A stretch of 64,000 nucleotides of DNA from an uncultured SAR86 cluster bacterium (GTDB lineage Bacteria > Pseudomonadota > Gammaproteobacteria > Magnimaribacterales > D2472): assembly GCA_902518715.1 (NCBI GenBank), contig CABYHU010000003.1:54985-118984 (forward strand). The letters run 5' to 3'. Made by a program: the position numbers and the translations under genes. The notes under the pieces are model-generated. The model had not been told where the DNA came from, searched no databases, and worked only from the letters and a program-made list of their open reading frames with translations. Positions 19,815-50,954 of this stretch are shown here, one piece after another (the first letter of the stretch is position 1; every line of letters starts with the position of its first letter).

Positions 19815-21086
19815 CTAGTTTATCAGTCCATTAATATCATACAAAGATAAGAATTCCCAGATGAATGTAGCTCCATCTATATCTGCACCCCCACCCTTAT
19901 CAGAATCTGATGCAGGCCAACTGTGGCCAAAATTTTCTAAATACGTAAAATTTATGCTAACTCCATCTTGGCAACTTGTTGCAATTTCTGAATACCAAGA
20001 ATATCCATCTCCATTTGAATCTTCACCATCAACAATAATATTTTCAGAACACGAGTTGAAAGAACTCCAATAATTACTTACAAGCTGAAGAGGGGTTACA
20101 TAATCGCCGCCCTGAACCGGGATCCATGAATCATCAAGTCCGTGCACATGAATAACTGGCATAGGTCTTTGGGGATCACAAGAATCATAATCTTCTGGGG
20201 ATAGAGATCCTGATACTGGAGCAACTGCAGCAACTTTATTGCTCAGAAAACATGCCATTGTATAAGCCATAAATGCACCATTAGAAAATCCTGATACATA
20301 TACGCGGCTGGGATCAATAGCTAATTCTTCAATAGAATAATCAATTAATTTCTCAATAAAAGAGACATCACAAACTTCAATGTTTGAACAATCTCCGCCT
20401 GCATACCAACCAGTATCCCCCTTTCCTTCAGCAACTGTTCCTTGGGGAAATATAAGGACAAAGTTATTTTCATCATTTATTTGCGTAAATCCAGTATATT
20501 CCATATTTGCATCTGCGTAATCTGCACCACCATGAAGACTAATTAGAAGTGGATAACTCTGATCTAAAGAGTGACTTTCTGGAAAAACTACGTAAAATTC
20601 TCTTTCCAAGTTTCCCGAATCTATTGTGCAATATGAGGTAGATTCTGATTGATCACTGCATACAGCAGGTGAATTATTACTACCATCATCACTTTCATCA
20701 TTTGTAATATTCACTACAAAATCATAGTTGCTTGAATATAAGCTACCATCGAATGCTCGAATTACTAATTCATATGAGTTATCAAGATTTGTATCAGATG
20801 GATTTTCATAATCAGGCGAAGACAAAAATAATACTTGTCCTGAATTATTAATGGTGAAAGAGCTTTGATCTGAGCCTCCAGTAATTTGAAAAGTAATACC
20901 ATCGCCATCAGGATCAGAGGCTTCCAAAACAAATGCCAAATTTTGATTTTCCAGAACACTGAATGTAAATGTGTTATTTGTTATTGTTGGTGGACCATTT
21001 TGGGTAACTTCGATACTACCTCCACCACCTCCTCCTCCACAAGCGGAAAGAAGGAATAAAAATAAAAAAAGATAAATTTTATTCAT
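19815..21086 (-). CDS. Lipoprotein: cadherin-like domain plus PHB-depolymerase/LpqC-family esterase
   Basis: Lipobox LLSAC plus a Gly7 linker. Cadherin-like repeat (FSVLENQ...ASDPDGDGITF...SPDYENP...YELVIRAFDG). Esterase motifs LLISLHGG, GFSNGA, VHGLDDS and FGHSWP. The ATG at 21086, 1 nt after the upstream stop, is preferred over the track start at 21110. Confidence 0.75.
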   Translation of the reverse strand: MNKIYLFLFLFLLSACGGGGGGGSIEVTQNGPPTITNNTFTFSVLENQNLAFVLEASDPDGDGITFQITGGSDQSSFTINNSGQVLFLSSPDYENPSDTNLDNSYELVIRAFDGSLYSSNYDFVVNITNDESDDGSNNSPAVCSDQSESTSYCTIDSGNLEREFYVVFPESHSLDQSYPLLISLHGGADYADANMEYTGFTQINDENNFVLIFPQGTVAEGKGDTGWYAGGDCSNIEVCDVSFIEKLIDYSIEELAIDPSRVYVSGFSNGAFMAYTMACFLSNKVAAVAPVSGSLSPEDYDSCDPQRPMPVIHVHGLDDSWIPVQGGDYVTPLQLVSNYWSSFNSCSENIIVDGEDSNGDGYSWYSEIATSCQDGVSINFTYLENFGHSWPASDSDKGGGADIDGATFIWEFLSLYDINGLIN

Positions 21087-23446: not shown

Positions 23447-23941
23447 TCAGTCTTCGAAATCAGCTTGAACAGTCTGATGAGTGCCTCCATAAGCAGCTGA
23501 AGAGAAATGAGATGTTTTAACAACCCAATTTTTACCTTCTTTAACCCATACACCAGTAACTCTGGTTCGATAAGGCTTCATTCCACCTTTTCCATCTGCA
23601 ACCACTCCTTCAGCATAATATCTTACGTAAACAGTTGTATCATTGAGCTGATGTGCTTCAGACGCATGAACTTGAATGACTCCAGTACCACCAGCACTTT
23701 GTCTTTCCCAGTCTGAAGCTGTTTGAGTAGCCATTGGTTTGTGAAAACTTCCATCTGAATTAGTATTTAACATTCCAGATGAGCTGCTCATAGCAACAAC
23801 TTTGTCCCAATCAGATGTATTTCTTGCATCCCAATAAGCTTCAATATTTTTTAAAACTGTTTTTTCAGCATCTGTATGAGCATCAGCAAAAACAACAACT
23901 GAAAAAATTAAAGCTGCACTTAAAAATATATTTCTAAACAT
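23447..23941 (-). CDS. Secreted NTF2-fold (SnoaL/DUF4440-like) protein
   Basis: 164 aa with a signal peptide. LKNIEAYWDARNTSDWDKV ... RVTGVWVKEGKNWVVKTSHFS is typical of NTF2-like proteins. Strong SD (GGAGGAAATA-ATG). Confidence 0.6.
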   Translation of the reverse strand: MFRNIFLSAALIFSVVVFADAHTDAEKTVLKNIEAYWDARNTSDWDKVVAMSSSSGMLNTNSDGSFHKPMATQTASDWERQSAGGTGVIQVHASEAHQLNDTTVYVRYYAEGVVADGKGGMKPYRTRVTGVWVKEGKNWVVKTSHFSSAAYGGTHQTVQADFED

Positions 23942-23954
23942 ATTTCCTCCTTTT

Positions 23955-24263
23955 TTATTTAGTCATATTAAATCTTTCTTCGCCAATACCAGCTGACATC
24001 CAAATCTCGTTTGAAACTTGATTTGATAAATCAGCTAAATCAAAAAAGGCTTTCATAGTCTCGGCTGAAGGATCAGCATCGCTACCCCATACACCCTTCT
24101 CTGCATCGACTATAATTCCAATTAAGTTTGGATTCACCCAGAAAAACTTTGCATCATTTACACCTTCAACATTTTTTGCAGCCTTGCAAACTGCAAGAGC
24201 AGCATGACCGAAAGCGTCTCTATCAGCATCACTTCTCATTTCATATTTTCCTATATGCAACAT
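23955..24263 (-). CDS. Hypothetical small protein (102 aa, no signal peptide)
   Basis: ORF with a GGAG SD 6-7 nt upstream, packed between two secreted-protein genes. Family not recognised; the alpha+beta pattern is guessed. Confidence 0.5.
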   Translation of the reverse strand: MLHIGKYEMRSDADRDAFGHAALAVCKAAKNVEGVNDAKFFWVNPNLIGIIVDAEKGVWGSDADPSAETMKAFFDLADLSNQVSNEIWMSAGIGEERFNMTK

Positions 24264-24291
24264 AATTTATCTCCAAAAAAAACACATATTA

Positions 24292-24726
24292 TTAAAGCAT
24301 ACACCATCTTCTTTCAGCAACAACCTCAGTATTCTTGTTGTACATGGCAACAAAGGCATTGTATTTTTTGTCAGCAAGTTTTCTATCTTCTTCAGATAAA
24401 GCTTCTATGCTTTCTCTCCATTCACTCCATGAGTTAACACTATCCCAAACAACCATTGTTGAAACACGATGAAGTTTTTCTTCTGTCCCATCGTCATTTC
24501 TTAAATATTGGAGTGCTGGATAAACCTTTACATTTGCGCCCTGCTCGTCGTAAAAGTTTTGATGCATCTTGCTAGCTTTCATCATTCCTTCAACACTGCC
24601 GCCAGAAACAATTTTAGAAACGTAATAATTAACAACTTTTCCATCACAATCTGAAAAATCTGTTGAAATACGATGATCGTCTGCAAATGAAAAAATTGAA
24701 AAAGTTAATAATAAAAAATATCTCAT
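24292..24726 (-). CDS. Secreted hypothetical protein, single Cys-bracketed ABM-like module
   Basis: 144 aa with a signal peptide and strong SD (GGAGG). The mature part starts ..SDCDGKVV, contains STMVVWDSVNSWSEWRES and ends RRWCML. Confidence 0.55.
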   Translation of the reverse strand: MRYFLLLTFSIFSFADDHRISTDFSDCDGKVVNYYVSKIVSGGSVEGMMKASKMHQNFYDEQGANVKVYPALQYLRNDDGTEEKLHRVSTMVVWDSVNSWSEWRESIEALSEEDRKLADKKYNAFVAMYNKNTEVVAERRWCML

Positions 24727-31893: not shown

Positions 31894-32037
31894 TTACTCC
31901 TTAGCATTGGTTTTGCATCTTTTACTACAAAATCTGATCTCATCCCAAGATCTTTCCCATTTTTTTCTCCATGTAAAAGGCCTATTACATGTTACACAAA
32001 TTTTTTGAGGAAGATTGGATTTTTTTATTCTTTTCAA
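31894..32037 (-). CDS. DUF2256 zinc-ribbon mini-protein (47 aa, not in ORF track)
   Basis: Hand translation gives (TTG)KRIKKSNLPQKICVTCNRPFTWRKKWERSWDEIRFCSKRCKTNAKE*. This matches the DUF2256 pattern C..C.RPF.WRKKW...W..v.yCS..C. The TTG start overlaps the TGA of the upstream photolyase-related gene (TTGA), with an AAGGA SD about 10 nt upstream. Confidence 0.7.
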   Translation of the reverse strand: MKRIKKSNLPQKICVTCNRPFTWRKKWERSWDEIRFCSKRCKTNAKE

Positions 32038-33521
32038 AGAGTTTTTTCCTTAATAAAAATATCAGCCGCCTTAAAAATTCTTAATTTCCTATCCTTATCA
32101 AGTTTATCAAGAGCTCTTATCATTAGAGAAAGACGTGGATTTGAAGCAAAGAATTCTCTATTGTCTTCAATAAATTTCCAATATAGGCCATCAACAATTT
32201 CACACCAATCTCCCTTTTTGAAATTTGACATCCTTAATATATAACTTGATCCACAAATATATGGCTTGGTAGCAAATATTCCTCCATCAGCAAATGTTCC
32301 CATACCAAAAACATTTGGAACCATTACCCACTCAGACGAATCAACAAACATTTCCATAAACCATTTATAAATCTCTGATGGATGGATTCTTGACATATTC
32401 ATTATGCTAGCTAAAACCATAAGTCTATTTATGTGATGGGTGTACCCAAACTCTAGTGCGCCTTTTATGGCATCATCTAGTGGCTCTATACCTGTTTCTC
32501 CTGTATACCAAGCATCAGATAGTTTTCTTTGATGGTTCCAATAATTAGCATCTATCATTTTTTCAGAGAAGTTTTGATAAATGCCTCTTATAAATTCTCG
32601 CCACCCGATTATTTGTCTAATAAATCCTTCTAGGCTGTTCAGAGGTATATCATTTTCCTTAGCATAATTTCTTGCCTCAGTTATAACTTGCTGTGGAGTA
32701 ATAATCCCAAGGTTCATTGAGCTACTTAACGCAGAATGAAGTTGAAAATGCTCCCCCATAAAAATAGCATCTTCGTATGGTCCAAAATCTTTAAAACGCT
32801 CATCAAAAAAAACATTAAGCCAATCTAAAGCTTGTTCAGAGGTATAAGGGAAAATATTATTTATCATCCCTGGATGATCTTTAAATTCAGTATTTATAAA
32901 ATTAGAAATTTCTTCAGAATCATCTCGTTTTTTGATATTTGGAAGTTCTGGAATTATGTAACCTTTAGGAAGCTTTTTTCTATTCTCATCATCAAAGCTC
33001 CATTTACCACCCAAAGGCTTTCCATCTTCTAAAAGAAGATCCATCTCTTTTCTAGCTTTCTTGTAATAGTTAGCTTGTAATATAAAAGTTTTATCCCCTA
33101 TATATTCTTTAAATGATTCCCTTGTATCAATGAACATGGGTGTTTTAAGAATTTCGTGAGTAATCTCAAGTTCATTAACTAACAGAAGTATCTCTTTTTC
33201 AAAAGGTTTATCTTCAATTTCAAAAAACTTAATTTTAGTAAACTGATTTTTCTTGATTTCCTCAGCTAATTTTTCAATAAAAGGATCATTGAATCTGTTA
33301 TTGAAATCATAATAGATGTTTCTTATGTTTGATTTCTCTAGAGAGTCTCTAAATGACCTCATTGCATTAAAAAATAAAGCAATTTTTGATTTATGATGTT
33401 TTTCATATGTGCATAATCCAGAATCCTCGCACATGAAAACAGTTTCAGTATCTTCTATTTTTTGTATTTCTAAAGGGAAAAGCTGATTTCCTAGAATTAA
33501 TCTTAAAGTTTTATCTGTCAT
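32034..33521 (-). CDS. Cryptochrome/photolyase-family protein (deoxyribodipyrimidine photolyase-related, COG3046-like)
   Basis: 495 aa with QIIGWREFIRGIY, GYTHHINRLMVLASIM and VDSSEWVMVPNVFGMGTFADGG...KPYICGSSYILRMSNF. DUF2256 lies immediately downstream, a known pairing. Confidence 0.85.
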   Translation of the reverse strand: MTDKTLRLILGNQLFPLEIQKIEDTETVFMCEDSGLCTYEKHHKSKIALFFNAMRSFRDSLEKSNIRNIYYDFNNRFNDPFIEKLAEEIKKNQFTKIKFFEIEDKPFEKEILLLVNELEITHEILKTPMFIDTRESFKEYIGDKTFILQANYYKKARKEMDLLLEDGKPLGGKWSFDDENRKKLPKGYIIPELPNIKKRDDSEEISNFINTEFKDHPGMINNIFPYTSEQALDWLNVFFDERFKDFGPYEDAIFMGEHFQLHSALSSSMNLGIITPQQVITEARNYAKENDIPLNSLEGFIRQIIGWREFIRGIYQNFSEKMIDANYWNHQRKLSDAWYTGETGIEPLDDAIKGALEFGYTHHINRLMVLASIMNMSRIHPSEIYKWFMEMFVDSSEWVMVPNVFGMGTFADGGIFATKPYICGSSYILRMSNFKKGDWCEIVDGLYWKFIEDNREFFASNPRLSLMIRALDKLDKDRKLRIFKAADIFIKEKTL

Positions 33522-33560: not shown

Positions 33561-33582
33561 AAAAAAGGCCGCTAAGCGGCCT
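33561..33582 (-). terminator. Rho-independent terminator of lipoprotein gene 33603..34364
   Basis: On the minus strand, GGCCGCttaGCGGCC is followed by TTTTTT. Confidence 0.8.
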
Positions 33583-33602
33583 TTAAAATAGACAGAGTCT
33601 AT

Positions 33603-34364
33603 TTAACTTGCTGCAGCATTCTTAAATTCTGCACTACTCCAAAGCTCTGGATCATCACATTCAGTATGTGAGTCAAAGATTGCTTGCATTTCTGCACCAT
33701 TTTCATACCAATTCATATTTCCACTTTCCATTGTTTCAAATGTTTGATGAAAATTAAGCCAGTAGAAATCATTAGGATCACTGGTGTCTTGAGGAAGATA
33801 GACCCCGTAAGTATATGGATCATCTGTGTCATATTCTTCTAGCCACTCATCGAAAAGAGCAATATCAGCCATTAGCTCAGATTTAGAAGCACCGTTCACA
33901 AATCTGCATGCCTGTGATTGAGTTGCAAAAGATTTCCAATCAAGTCCACTTTGTGGATCTCCCAGATGAAACTCATGATCAAATACTTGGGTATTATCAC
34001 AGTCCAAAACATTATTTGAAGATTGATCCCATTCCTGAGCATCCTCTCTTGAAAGCCATGACTCCCATGCAGAATCTGCAGCTTCTTTTGAGGTCCATTG
34101 AAGCTCCCACCAACCGTTTTGCTGTCCGCTAGCTGGTGCATAGCCTCCGGCCCAAACCATCTGATCATAAACAGCAACTAATTCATTCCAGTCAGCAACA
34201 AACTTCCTCATATTTTCATCTGAGTAGTCAGGGCCGGCTGTACAAGGAATCATTTGGTTAAAGAAAACAGTTTGTGGAGCATCTGCATCTTCCATTGTAT
34301 TGGAACAACTGACAACGAAAATTAATGCAAAAAAAGTTAACAAGCTTTTTGTAGTTAAATTCAT
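33603..34364 (-). CDS. Acidic, Trp-rich lipoprotein with two Cys-bracketed ABM-like modules (paralogue A)
   Basis: 253 aa with lipobox FVVSC and a GGAG SD. Module 1: PCTAGPDYSDENM...GWWELQWTSKEAADSAWESW...LDCD. Module 2: ACRFVNGASKSEL...DFYWLNFHQTFETM...ECDD. Confidence 0.7.
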   Translation of the reverse strand: MNLTTKSLLTFFALIFVVSCSNTMEDADAPQTVFFNQMIPCTAGPDYSDENMRKFVADWNELVAVYDQMVWAGGYAPASGQQNGWWELQWTSKEAADSAWESWLSREDAQEWDQSSNNVLDCDNTQVFDHEFHLGDPQSGLDWKSFATQSQACRFVNGASKSELMADIALFDEWLEEYDTDDPYTYGVYLPQDTSDPNDFYWLNFHQTFETMESGNMNWYENGAEMQAIFDSHTECDDPELWSSAEFKNAAAS

Positions 34365-34401
34365 AAATTCTCCGAAAAAAATTAATAAGAATTTATATTA
34401 C

Positions 34402-34430
34402 AAAAAAAAGCCACCAAAAGGTGGCTTTTT
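34402..34430 (-). terminator. Rho-independent terminator of lipoprotein gene 34450..35295
   Basis: On the minus strand, AGCCACCttttGGTGGCT is followed by TTTTTTTT. Confidence 0.85.
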
Positions 34431-34449
34431 AAGATAAAAGTTTGATTTT

Positions 34450-35295
34450 TTAATAGCTTGAAAAATCTGGCATGAAATCTTTTTGCTCACTATTGTAGAA
34501 AGTCCAGCCATGATAAATATCTATAACATCCTCTCTACAGGTGGCAAATTCACTAAACTGTGGAAAGAGAGTTGATCTCATATTAGTTTCAAAGACTTCG
34601 TTTACCTTAACCATTGATGCTTCGCTATTTGTAAAGCTTGCCCATAGAAAATCTATTCCTTCCTCTGTATGTGAGCCATCTTCATTTAGTTGAGCATAGT
34701 AGTTACCATAATGAAAAGATGTCCCATCAAAGCCATCAGTATTCTCATAAACTCCTGCGGTATACTTAGGCAAGAATGCAACTGCATCCGATTTAGAGAA
34801 GCCTTCGTTATAAAAACAATGATAAAACTCACTGTAAAAATATCCACTCTCTGGAAGAGCTCCAAAATGATCTGCTTCAACTGGAAAAATTGCATCTAAG
34901 GCATTTCTACCCTCTGCATCACAAGATAAAACACTCTCATATTTCTCAGTCCATGCTGCTGCTTCAGTGTTAGAGGCCCATTGAGACCATGCTGCATTTG
35001 CAGAATCTTGAGAGGACCAATTAAGCTCCCACCAACCGGTATTTCCAAATGCATTTGATTCCGAAGCTGGAGCATATCCCCATGCACCTTTTAAATCATC
35101 TGCAATAAGCAAGCTGCGCCATTCACTTATCATTTCTTGCATATTCTCGACAGAGTAGTCTGGGCCAGCTTGGCATGGCATAAATTCAACAAAAATTGAT
35201 TCTCCGTTAAACGCTTCTGATTGATTTGAGGCTTGCTCATTTGAACAGCTCACAAAAAGAAACGAAACGAAAGATATAAGTAATAATTTTTTCAT
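34450..35295 (-). CDS. Acidic, Trp-rich lipoprotein with two Cys-bracketed ABM-like modules (paralogue B)
   Basis: Lipobox LFVSC. Module 1: PCQAGPDYSVENM...GWWELNWSSQDSANAAWSQW...LSCD. Module 2: HCFYNEGFSKSDA...IDFLWASFTNSEASM...ATCRED. The track start at 35307 is TTG. The ATG at 35295 has a GGAG SD 6 nt upstream. Confidence 0.7.
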   Translation of the reverse strand: MKKLLLISFVSFLFVSCSNEQASNQSEAFNGESIFVEFMPCQAGPDYSVENMQEMISEWRSLLIADDLKGAWGYAPASESNAFGNTGWWELNWSSQDSANAAWSQWASNTEAAAWTEKYESVLSCDAEGRNALDAIFPVEADHFGALPESGYFYSEFYHCFYNEGFSKSDAVAFLPKYTAGVYENTDGFDGTSFHYGNYYAQLNEDGSHTEEGIDFLWASFTNSEASMVKVNEVFETNMRSTLFPQFSEFATCREDVIDIYHGWTFYNSEQKDFMPDFSSY

Positions 35296-35338
35296 AACAT
35301 TCTCCAAAAGATTATATTAACTGATTTTTTGGGCACTA

Positions 35339-35704
35339 CTAAGATTCAACATGAAAAAGCTTGGTATAAATTTTCCATTCATCATCTTTCTTTAAAAAGG
35401 ATAAACAATCTACAAAAATCATCCCTAGGTATGCTTCTCTAACTTTTACAGCTGCAGTATTTCCATAAACTTCACATGAGAGTATTTCTAGCATCTTTTC
35501 ATCATTATTTTCCATCGGTGATGGTTGTTGCGATGCTACAAAACCTGCAAAATCATCGACACTCATTTCATGAAACCCATCTGGGAGATACCCTGTTATG
35601 GAAGCATTTGGATTAAAAGAAGCTTTAATTTTTTCAGGATCTGACTCATAACATCCATCAAAATATAACTGAATACAGTCCTTTATCATTTCATTATCAT
35701 TCAT
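35339..35704 (-). CDS. NTF2-fold protein (putative lumazine-binding/SnoaL-like family)
   Basis: 121 aa from the ATG at 35704, which has a GGAG SD. IQLYFDGCYESDPEKIKASFNPNASITG ... AAVKVREAYLGMIFVDCLSFLKKDDEWKIYTKLF. The upstream 30 aa in the track overlap the tRNA and are spurious. Confidence 0.65.
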   Translation of the reverse strand: MNDNEMIKDCIQLYFDGCYESDPEKIKASFNPNASITGYLPDGFHEMSVDDFAGFVASQQPSPMENNDEKMLEILSCEVYGNTAAVKVREAYLGMIFVDCLSFLKKDDEWKIYTKLFHVES

Positions 35705-50522: not shown

Positions 50523-50954
50523 TTATTTGAAGTTTACTTTTCTTAAAACAACAAGGTCTACGATTTCTCTCATATCACCATAGCCGCCAGCTATTTCTCT
50601 TTGATCATCTTCAGAAATCTTTTTTCTCCATGCCTCAACAAACTCCTCATATTTTTCTTTATCAGGTCCCATTGCAGCAAGATTTTCATAAGTTATTGTT
50701 AAGAAAACATTTGGATCAGTACCAGCAGTATCTGCAGTATAAACAGCACAACTAACAATATGTCCCAGCTCCTTCTGAATTTCACAAGAATCAACCCAAG
50801 TTCTTTTGATTCCCATTAGGTAATCATCAAGCATGTTTGCTTTTACCTTAACTACAGTCATTTCTGTAACTTGCTCAGCGGGCTCATAATCTACCCAGAT
50901 CTCAGCAAAGCTAAAGAAAGGAACAAGTAGTGATAAAAATAGAATTTTTTTCAT
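50523..50954 (-). CDS. Secreted hypothetical protein (143 aa)
   Basis: Signal peptide and strong SD (GGAGGAAATT-ATG). Family not recognised. Confidence 0.5.
   Translation of the reverse strand: MKKILFLSLLVPFFSFAEIWVDYEPAEQVTEMTVVKVKANMLDDYLMGIKRTWVDSCEIQKELGHIVSCAVYTADTAGTDPNVFLTITYENLAAMGPDKEKYEEFVEAWRKKISEDDQREIAGGYGDMREIVDLVVLRKVNFK

Follow-up and report, generated by a model that had tools for sequence, protein, structure and literature searches.

The window, a stretch of 64,000 nucleotides from an uncultured SAR86 cluster bacterium, contains two adjacent minus-strand genes, here called A and B (Table 1). An earlier note on this DNA, made from the letters alone, had reported these open reading frames of 253 and 281 amino acids, and both were present with all the peptides that it quoted. 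Gene B has an alternative TTG start four codons 5' of the ATG, which gives a product of 285 amino acids. Each gene indeed has its own Shine–Dalgarno sequence and strong terminator, as the note stated: the distance from GGAG to ATG is 5 nt in both A and B, and no hairpin plus T-run site in 60 kb is stronger than the two terminators; terminator-like sites overall occur over this length at chance frequency. A and B are probably made from separate, efficiently terminated messages. A gene for a Lumazine_bd_2 protein lies 43 nt from B with no terminator between them and may be co-transcribed with it; this gene was found directly upstream on the same strand at 17 loci, in two different flanking contexts. 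A DPRP photolyase/cryptochrome gene is located downstream of A and B.

Table 1. Features of the A/B locus, with positions in the window.
Feature	Position	Strand	Description	Basis
Gene A	33603..34364	minus	253-aa lipoprotein precursor, A-type subfamily	ORF call
Gene B	34450..35295	minus	281-aa lipoprotein precursor, B-type subfamily	ORF and translation
A signal peptide and lipobox	34305..34364	minus	MNLTTKSLLTFFALIFVVSC, Cys20	Direct reading; conserved Cys column
B signal peptide and lipobox	35245..35295	minus	MKKLLLISFVSFLFVSC, Cys17	Direct reading
A N-module, residues 31-135	33960..34274	minus	Ferredoxin-like unit, Cys41...Cys122	DSSP of model
A C-module, residues 143-250	33615..33938	minus	Second ferredoxin-like unit, Cys153...Cys236	DSSP; hhalign
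B N-module, residues 30-138	34882..35208	minus	Cys41...Cys125	N-half HMM
B C-module, residues 140-272	34480..34878	minus	Cys160...Cys253	C-half HMM
Shine–Dalgarno GGAG of A	34370..34373	minus	Upstream ...TTTCGGAGAATTT, then ATG directly	
Shine–Dalgarno GGAG of B	35302..35305	minus	Upstream ...CTTTTGGAGAATGTT, then ATG directly	
Intrinsic terminator after A	33564..33584	minus	9-bp stem, 6 GC pairs, T6 tail; -17.6 kcal/mol, z -4.3	
Intrinsic terminator after B	34405..34430	minus	11-bp stem, T8 tail; -17.6 kcal/mol, z -5.9	
Lumazine_bd_2 (NTF2-like) gene	35339..35704	minus	Without signal peptide	Pfam PF12893, E 1.4e-25

The lipoboxes that had been claimed, FVVSC in A and LFVSC in B, can be read directly and follow K-containing n-regions and hydrophobic h-regions. 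What was required of a lipoprotein N-terminus was a positively charged n-region, a hydrophobic stretch (h-region) and, no later than residue ~25, the lipobox [LVI][ASTVI][GAS]C; all of these are present in A (MNLTTKSLLTFFALIFVVS-C20) and B (MKKLLLISFVSFLFVS-C17). The lipobox Cys is retained in 90-95% of the relatives (95% of alignment A1 and 90% of A2). The family gives weak matches to LPAM_1 and to lipoprotein N-terminus models, and residues 1-25 of B match such models of NCBIfam, also weakly. It is thus strongly supported by sequence that A and B are made with a type-II (lipobox) signal peptide. At +2, 36 of 42 close relatives have Ser and none has Asp. Because of this Ser, the mature proteins are predicted to be held at the outer membrane by a lipid anchor and to face the periplasm, or perhaps the outside of the cell, under the sorting rule of E. 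coli, which may not be that of SAR86.

BLASTP aligned A with B at 34% identity (E 3e-30), and the N-terminal halves, which the earlier note had called homologous, are 43% identical against 24-25% for the C-terminal halves. A recent tandem duplication was rejected given the 34% identity and the occurrence of both subfamilies apart in other genomes; the tandem arrangement of A and B is present in only 3 of 7 close relatives. The product of A is 100% identical to its counterpart in SAR86 SAG AG-390-J09, and B, which matches the family HMM with an E-value of 6.5e-116, has orthologues of 46-55% identity in many SAR86 genomes. The family comprises ~340 representative clusters and occurs mainly in the marine gammaproteobacterial groups SAR86 and SAR92/Porticoccaceae, with two to four or more copies per streamlined genome, and the cultured SAR92 strain HTCC2207 encodes a homologue (Q1YQN4, GB2207_06733). 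No family was matched when A, B and 49 diverse relatives were scanned against Pfam and NCBIfam, in line with the view that the proteins belong to an unassigned family, and the public names of relatives are all "hypothetical" or "lipoprotein". Sequence searches of the PDB with A alone and with the A1, A2 and single-module profiles gave nothing significant; the best match of the single-module profile was to YjcS (1q8b), which at E 0.71 is not significant and is in register with alpha1-beta2-beta3. No functional information was found in the literature on SAR86 lipoproteins, 2pgc, accession numbers or Lumazine_bd_2. There is strong support that A and B diverged long ago as paralogues within a single unclassified protein family.

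Within each protein the second half was suggested to repeat the first, and profile comparison of the halves bears this out. With the 49-sequence alignment, hhalign aligned 97 columns with both Cys in register (probability 99.0%, E 7.1e-18), against P values of at least 0.04 for 20 column-shuffled controls; the narrow alignment gave an E-value of only 0.0036. The C-half HMM also matches the N halves, in register, and it matches both halves of distant secreted relatives. In B the N-half HMM matches residues 32-138 (E 7.5e-49) and the C-half HMM residues 140-272 (E 8.9e-47). These results strongly support that each protein consists of two homologous ferredoxin-like modules of ~100 residues that arose by internal duplication. 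The two halves of each protein have since diverged to 15-19% identity, and the N-module, which in A carries the Trp cluster W85/86/90/100/103/112 and Glu87, is better conserved than the C-module. The ORF at 24292..24726, suggested as a single-module relative, was rejected as a demonstrated one, since the family HMMs (E at least 0.19) and hhalign (probability at most 10%) gave insignificant results; it is kept as a possibility, and its low-confidence AF2 model (pLDDT 61.5) has a ferredoxin-like topology with weak Foldseek matches. ATCUN-like D-x-H N-termini of secreted relatives (7 observed and 2.4 expected in a crude count, from 3 clusters only) were set aside as too weak.

Four Cys other than that of the lipobox bracket the halves (C41/C122 and C153/C236 in A) and are invariant in the 42 close relatives. 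The full set of four occurs in 256 of the 284 distinct full-length relatives, and in 16 others C41 and C122 are the only ones missing. In the 49-sequence set C41 and C122 are both present in 35 members and both absent in 14, and neither ever occurs alone. This joint presence and absence supports the proposed closure by disulfides; the co-loss may go back to one evolutionary event in a single clade. Cys153 and Cys236 are near-invariant and persist where Cys41 and Cys122 are lost. We infer a disulfide clamp in each module, with C41-C122 and C153-C236 as the pairs in A, between the end of beta1 and the start of beta4.

The AF2 model of A (pLDDT 85.7, pTM 0.79; pLDDT above 90 over most of residues 31-250) shows two ferredoxin-like b-a-b-b-a-a-b(-b) modules. 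DSSP of the model gave E32-43 H49-63 E69-77 E83-90 H93-105 H107-115 E120-122 E128-134 for the N-module and E145-155 H161-178 E184-191 E200-206 H209-222 H224-231 E234-236 E240-249 for the C-module. The 'W-x-S-x-EA' segment, which the note had likened to the beta3/alpha2 signature of ABM domains, corresponds in the model to beta3 and the start of alpha2. Foldseek against the PDB, a check that the note had proposed, retrieved fused dimeric alpha+beta-barrel (DABB) proteins with a probability of 1.00 and superposition of the whole chain over 217-240 columns (3f44, 2pgc, 3mcs, 5f9p, 9kdp and HemQ/Cld/DyP), at a sequence identity of 7-11% to all structural matches. The model, on which the fold assignment rests as a single AlphaFold prediction, strongly supports that the two modules come together within one chain as a 'dimeric' alpha+beta barrel. 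The claim of an ABM-like or DABB pseudo-dimer therefore stands at the level of the superfamily fold, but not as membership of the ABM family, as the Pfam model PF03992 matched neither A nor B at E <= 10 and none of the 49 members at E <= 1. The fold is well known and the sequence family is new.

Among the top Foldseek matches are ABM-type monooxygenases, some putative and some proven (3f44, 3mcs, the anthrone-oxidase-like 5f9p and PenE, 9kdp), so A and B might be ABM-type enzymes that need no cofactor (oxygenase, isomerase or cyclase) and act on a periplasmic substrate instead of passively binding a ligand. Glu87 is invariant and looks buried, an Asp is conserved before beta3, and NTF2/SnoaL-like genes recur nearby (Lumazine_bd_2, SnoaL_2 and SnoaL_3), a pairing typical of small-molecule tailoring enzymes. 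However, besides the failure of the ABM model and the low identity to the structural matches, no recognised catalytic constellation is conserved, and the NTF2-like neighbours of A and B have no signal peptides and would therefore sit in another compartment. It seems unlikely that A and B are enzymes of this type.

Both proteins are very acidic and rich in Trp. No protein in the window is more acidic than A, which has a net charge of -36; that of B is -31. Trp makes up 5.1% of A and 3.6% of B compared with a window mean of 1.3%. The strong negative charge is kept across the family (median -30.5), and the strong Shine–Dalgarno sites and terminators suggest high expression. This could imply that A and B are abundant acidic envelope proteins without a specific organic ligand, which bind or buffer cations (Ca2+, Mg2+, trace metals) or serve the outer membrane structurally or under stress; some DABB families are indeed 'stress-responsive' proteins without a known ligand. 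We regard this as improbable, since exported proteins of marine bacteria often have acidic surfaces, conservation is strongest at buried aromatic positions of one module and not in acidic clusters, and multiple divergent paralogues fit specificity better than bulk buffering.

Neighbouring genes, which the note had proposed to survey, gave little: at 80 loci they are mainly housekeeping synteny, with amidohydrolase, aspartate kinase, DDAH, ornithine aminotransferase and alanine dehydrogenase as conserved neighbours. An operon-based prediction of function was rejected for this reason, and no transporter partner, ligand or catalytic motif was identified. A PF00144 esterase/beta-lactamase-family gene adjoins three distant branches of the family and none of the members at the 80 SAR86-type loci, and this association is a lead only.

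Taken as a whole, we favour the explanation that A and B represent an unclassified lipobox family with a duplicated, disulfide-clamped barrel and a small-molecule role in the envelope, and we think it probably correct. The mechanism on its own, in which these envelope proteins hold or process a small molecule, is proposed tentatively. The molecule, small and either hydrophobic or aromatic, would be held or processed in the pocket between sheet and helices that is typical of the DABB fold. The functional site shared by the paralogues would lie in the conserved Trp-rich N-module (W86, W90, W100, W103, W112 and Glu87); its conserved Trp residues might be there just for packing of the core. The C-module, which has diverged further, would complete the barrel and perhaps determine the specificity of each paralogue, and several paralogues per streamlined genome would cover several ligands. 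A bolder version, to which we give little credence, is that the family consists of unrecognised outer-membrane-anchored capture proteins specific to oligotrophic marine Gammaproteobacteria (SAR86, SAR92). The Trp-lined DABB pocket of each paralogue would bind an aromatic or hydrophobic compound in short supply, either a nutrient or a cofactor, and the compound would be handed to the many TonB-dependent transporters of the cell. The ligand could be a flavin, lumazine or pterin-type compound, as hinted by the conserved Lumazine_bd_2 partner and the downstream photolyase/cryptochrome gene; alternatively, exported PF00144 esterases could release it by hydrolysis. If true, the cells would scavenge nutrients with a fold for which no such use had been known.

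Few heterotrophic lineages of the surface ocean are as abundant as SAR86, whose genomes are very small. A family that is kept there in multiple copies, directed to the envelope and equipped with strong translation and termination signals is probably important to the way of life of these bacteria, and the envelope is where SAR86 cells meet dissolved organic matter. The present analysis gives the family a predicted fold, a duplication history and, with Q1YQN4, an experimental handle. If it binds a specific nutrient, it would represent a new type of envelope binding protein.

The closest known systems include the tandem ABM proteins, namely the putative monooxygenase of Lactobacillus acidophilus (3f44), FN1347 (3mcs), the anthrone oxidase-like 5f9p and PenE (9kdp), which likewise have two ferredoxin-like b-a-b-b-a-b units in one chain (best E 7.8e-8, probability 1.00, 220-240 columns, 7-10% identity). 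A and B are far more acidic and Trp-rich than these proteins and do not match their Pfam model. To our knowledge, the tandem ABM proteins are cytoplasmic, without signal peptide, lipobox or conserved disulfides. The highest TM match was 2pgc (206 aa; 0.61 query-normalised and 0.72 target-normalised, rmsd ~4 A), a structural-genomics protein of a novel Global Ocean Sampling family (PMC2557142). Like A and B it is a marine-metagenome protein with a duplicated DABB fold, and the likeness is at the level of the fold only, as 2pgc was absent from PDB profile searches with A1, A2 and the A4 module profile (E <= 10).

The CDE superfamily (chlorite dismutase, coproheme decarboxylase HemQ/ChdC and DyP/EfeB) also has two ferredoxin-like domains per chain, and some of its members are periplasmic. 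Many Foldseek matches were to Cld, HemQ, DyP and the Cld-like haem-binding protein 1vdh (E 1e-6 to 1e-5), and A and B are exported, as are Cld and EfeB. They could therefore bind haem or tetrapyrroles and resemble chlorite dismutase, HemQ, DyP/EfeB or IsdG in function, which might help the cell to obtain haem or iron from an ocean poor in iron. The features sought were the proximal His haem ligand, the distal Arg/Asp and, in DyP, the GXXDG motif. What speaks against haem-type functions is the lack of a conserved His, both in the invariant columns and in those with at least 60% conservation; the His of A (130, 133, 206, 233) and of B (143, 159, 195, 209, 262) do not coincide. The distal Arg/Asp is likewise not conserved, the modules are smaller than those of CDE proteins, export is by a Sec/lipobox signal and not by Tat, and the TM scores to these families (0.44-0.53) are below those to the tandem ABM proteins and 2pgc. 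Moreover, the examined loci carry no linked gene for haem uptake or for a TonB receptor. A haem-binding role thus appears very improbable. IsdG/MhuD-type haem oxygenases have an Asn-Trp-His catalytic triad in the ABM fold, and with no conserved His the family lacks this triad. Lastly, the module topology is shared with single-domain ABM/Dabb proteins such as B. subtilis YjcS (1q8b), SnoaB, At3g17210 and olivetolic acid cyclase. In these proteins two identical chains of ~100 aa associate to make the barrel, whereas in A and B the halves are fused, diverged and predicted to be clamped by disulfides.

The two adjacent minus-strand genes A and B are intact ORFs separated by 85 nt (see the table), and all peptide strings quoted for them in the earlier note were found in the translations. 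Both N-termini carry a lipobox (FVVS-C20 in A, LFVS-C17 in B) behind a short basic n-region and a hydrophobic stretch (h-region). In both genes the ATG is preceded at 5 nt by GGAG, which agrees with the separate SD assigned to each. Terminator-like sites occur at chance frequency in 60 kb of the window and the strongest two are those after A and B, so the remark that strong terminators are rare here was correct. Among 42 close relatives, the residue that follows the lipobox Cys (+2) is Ser in 36 and Asp in none. In E. coli this residue governs outer-membrane sorting, and by that rule the family lipoproteins are predicted to be sorted to the outer membrane.

Coordinates of genes, terminators and predicted modules (window positions for genes and terminators unless a locus is named; residues of A for modules, AF2 model)
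Feature	Position	Strand	Remarks
Gene B	34450..35295	minus	281 aa counted from ATG
Terminator after B	34405..34430	minus	hairpin + T-run, -17.6 kcal/mol, z -5.9 vs shuffles
Gene A	33603..34364	minus	253 aa
Terminator after A	33564..33584	minus	hairpin + T-run, -17.6 kcal/mol, z -4.3 vs shuffles
Lumazine_bd_2 gene	35339..35704	minus	43 nt to B, no terminator between
DPRP-type photolyase/cryptochrome	32034..33521		next gene downstream in window lineage
SnoaL_3/DUF4440 protein	23447..23941	minus	secreted
PF00144 neighbour, L083	8100..9290		
PF00144 neighbour, L087	5459..6814		
PF00144 neighbour, L091	297..1577		
Module 1 of A	E32-43, H49-63, E69-77, E83-90, H93-105, H107-115, E120-122, E128-134		
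Module 2 of A	E145-155, H161-178, E184-191, E200-206, H209-222, H224-231, E234-236, E240-249		

With a net charge of -36 and a pI of about 4.05, A ranks first in acidity among the proteins that the window encodes; B has a net charge of -31 and the family median is -30.5. An acidic envelope protein with a cation-binding or structural role seems improbable. A 423-aa ORF elsewhere (19818..21086, minus strand) shows nearly A-like acidity (net charge -52, pI about 4.05). The Trp content is 5.1% in A and 3.6% in B, compared with 1.3% on average in the window, and the GC content of the window is 34.6%.

The proposal that each protein contains a duplicated module was confirmed. Half-versus-half profile comparison of close relatives alone was weak (E 0.0036, probability 9%). 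With an alignment of 49 sequences spanning the family, residues 30-135 versus 136-253 gave an hhalign probability of 99.0% and E 7.1e-18 over 97 columns, in which the two Cys of one half align with those of the other; the real pair scored 97.3, whereas the range for 20 column-shuffled controls was 7.6-14.3 (P >= 0.04). The C-half HMM matches the N halves in register, and also both halves of a distant branch with signal peptides that are not lipoproteins (P0168, P0177, P0209, P0213), where the duplication is likewise present (half-versus-half E 3.5e-18). At the level of sequence profiles, it is confirmed that the family proteins arose with an internal duplication.

Apart from the lipobox, A contains exactly four Cys (41, 122, 153 and 236) and B has four at aligned positions; all are invariant among the 42 close relatives. 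In the 49-sequence set, C153 and C236 are invariant, while C41 and C122 occur together in 35 sequences, are both missing from 14 and never occur singly. In 284 distinct full-length relatives, all four Cys occur in 256, and exactly C41 and C122 are missing from 16, a co-loss that may be a single evolutionary event; single discrepancies in the other 12 may be alignment or assembly errors. This joint pattern assigns the disulfide pairs as C41-C122 and C153-C236 and fits the suggested closure of each module, with the bonds themselves predicted. In the model of A, C41 ends beta1 and C122 begins the short beta4 strand. A ferredoxin-like sheet has strand order 4-1-3-2, in which beta4 and beta1 are adjacent and antiparallel, so a C41-C122 bond is geometrically plausible.

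For A, an AlphaFold2 model from an input of 42 sequences reaches a mean pLDDT of 85.7 and pTM 0.79, with disorder confined to residues 1-29 (signal peptide and linker). Both modules show the ferredoxin-like topology b-a-b-b-a(-a)-b in the same order. Foldseek returned 116 PDB matches at E <= 1e-3, led by fused proteins of the dimeric alpha+beta barrel (DABB) superfamily: the tandem ABM protein 3f44 (E 7.8e-8), the marine-metagenome protein 2pgc (TM 0.61 query-normalised, 0.72 target-normalised), 3mcs, anthrone-oxidase-like 5f9p and PenE 9kdp. Sequence identity to the structural matches is 7-11%, and sequence and profile searches of the PDB gave no significant match. The best single-module profile match there was B. 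subtilis YjcS (1q8b; E 0.71, register alpha1-beta2-beta3), an ABM-family protein. A Pfam scan of A, B and diverse members gave no match to the ABM family. The fold proposed earlier is supported by the model at superfamily level, but membership of the ABM family is not. As a reading of the function, a cofactor-less ABM-type enzyme is unlikely.

W86, W90, W100, W103, W112 and Glu87, which are invariant, fall within beta3 and alpha2 of the N-module. No conserved His was found in the close relatives or the 49-sequence alignment, which disfavours haem chemistry of the Cld/DyP/HemQ or IsdG type; the Cld/HemQ/DyP group, also among the leading Foldseek matches, reaches TM 0.44-0.53 against the model, and a haem binder is very improbable.

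A and B share 34% identity (E 3e-30). Their N halves are homologous, as the earlier note had stated (43% identity), and their C halves are 24-25% identical. SAR86 holds at least three subfamilies: A-type, B-type and a further one with about 35% identity to each of them. The tandem occurs only in L003, L005 and L006, while four close relatives have A alone in the same position. This patchy occurrence and the 34% identity rule out a recent tandem duplication; the pair consists of old paralogues brought together. In several genomes, members are found at more than one locus; in the SAR86 genome AG-461-E16, for instance, the far more distant paralogue P0112 shares a contig with L007. Immediately upstream of P0112 (L093 2051..4933), two more proteins with lipoboxes are encoded (381 and 334 aa; ...LISSCGGGGG and ...FIYSCGGGSG), which form a small lipoprotein gene cluster with it. 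Clusters of two or three family members (L041 2733..5126, L051 5555..8991, L083 5067..7891) mix lipoprotein and plain signal-peptide versions, in genomes that include a Gammaproteobacteria MAG and a SAR86 MAG.

Gene A is 100% identical to CACEAR010000002.1 of the SAR86 single-cell genome AG-390-J09 (L003). A motif scan covering one genome for each bacterial or archaeal species detected 100 loci that encode members, almost all of them in SAR86 or SAR92/Porticoccaceae, including the cultured strain HTCC2207; as it detects only loci with WWELxW, the scan sets no limit and the wider family may range beyond these taxa. Word-indexed searches gave 22 and 42 clusters at 90% identity, and 339 clusters at E <= 1e-3 came from an exhaustive search of 1.84 billion representatives by profile. 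Public names are all "hypothetical protein", "lipoprotein" or "putative lipoprotein", and a literature search for family accessions, including UniProt Q1YQN4 (HTCC2207) and J5KGH6 (SAR86A), found no mention.

ORF clustering across 80 loci showed mostly conserved SAR86 synteny with housekeeping genes. A Lumazine_bd_2 gene, encoding a cytoplasmic NTF2-like protein without signal peptide, is the immediate upstream neighbour, in the same orientation, at 17 loci (e.g. L064, L069, L075) with gaps of about 20-97 nt, and could be co-transcribed with B. Its constant position in two different contexts (amidohydrolase...DPRP in 7 loci, SnoaL_2/c23...alanine dehydrogenase in 10) suggests a conserved two-gene unit. 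A PF00144 beta-lactamase/esterase-family gene adjoins each of the very divergent members P0110, P0104 and P0098; two of these three PF00144 neighbours are lipoproteins by their lipoboxes, 27% identical to each other (E 2e-34), and no such gene was found in the 80 SAR86-type loci. Neither linkage defines a function.

The window encodes other small secreted proteins. ORF 24292..24726, suggested earlier for comparison, is not significantly related to the family (family HMMs E >= 0.19, hhalign probability <= 10%). It is a secreted protein of 144 aa bracketed by Cys27 and Cys142, and short hhalign alignments share the beta1-alpha1 register with the family. Its low-confidence model (pLDDT 61.5, b-a-b-b-a-a-b) weakly matches ABM, SnoaB, Dabb and olivetolic acid cyclase (E >= 5.7e-3), and it may be another secreted DABB-like protein. 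It is one of three small genes in a row (23447..24726, minus strand), with the SnoaL_3/DUF4440 protein and a 102-aa protein (23955..24263, minus) without match in a Pfam search; the three genes may form another cluster, a second one, for small alpha+beta proteins that are exported. The minus-strand gene 50523..50954 encodes a 143-aa protein with a signal peptide (MKKILFLSLLVPFFSFA); among window proteins outside the family, it scores best with the family HMMs (E 0.13-0.16). Over 145 aa it shares 22% identity with cluster c23, which is ABM-like, secreted and adjacent to B-type genes in 10 other SAR86 loci. It may be a further secreted DABB-like protein. A predicted mature N-terminus D-[D/N/H/A]-H, in which His is the third residue, like that of the ATCUN Cu(II)/Ni(II)-binding motif, occurs in the secreted non-lipoprotein relatives P0168, P0177, P0209, P0213, L083 5067..5810 and L019 4871..5662, and also in the secreted proteins 24292..24726 and 23447..23941 of the window. 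A crude count over 80 loci gave 7 such starts versus 2.4 expected, in 3 clusters only.

Overall, the earlier observation was confirmed and its interpretation supported. A family of exported lipoproteins in which duplication gave a single-chain DABB pseudo-dimer, with a predicted disulfide clamp per module, is well supported. As to function, we only tentatively propose that these are proteins of the envelope which bind or process a small molecule, either hydrophobic or aromatic. This molecule would be held in the sheet-helix pocket typical of the fold; the Trp-rich conserved N-module would form the common site, and the divergent C-module would serve as barrel partner and possibly as specificity element. 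Among the structural matches, 2pgc represents one of the novel protein families from Global Ocean Sampling whose structures came from structural genomics, and its function is not known (PMC2557142). In the literature and databases searched, no description was found of the sequence family, its lipid anchor, the predicted disulfide in each module or the extreme acidity; the fold and the fused-dimer architecture are already known.
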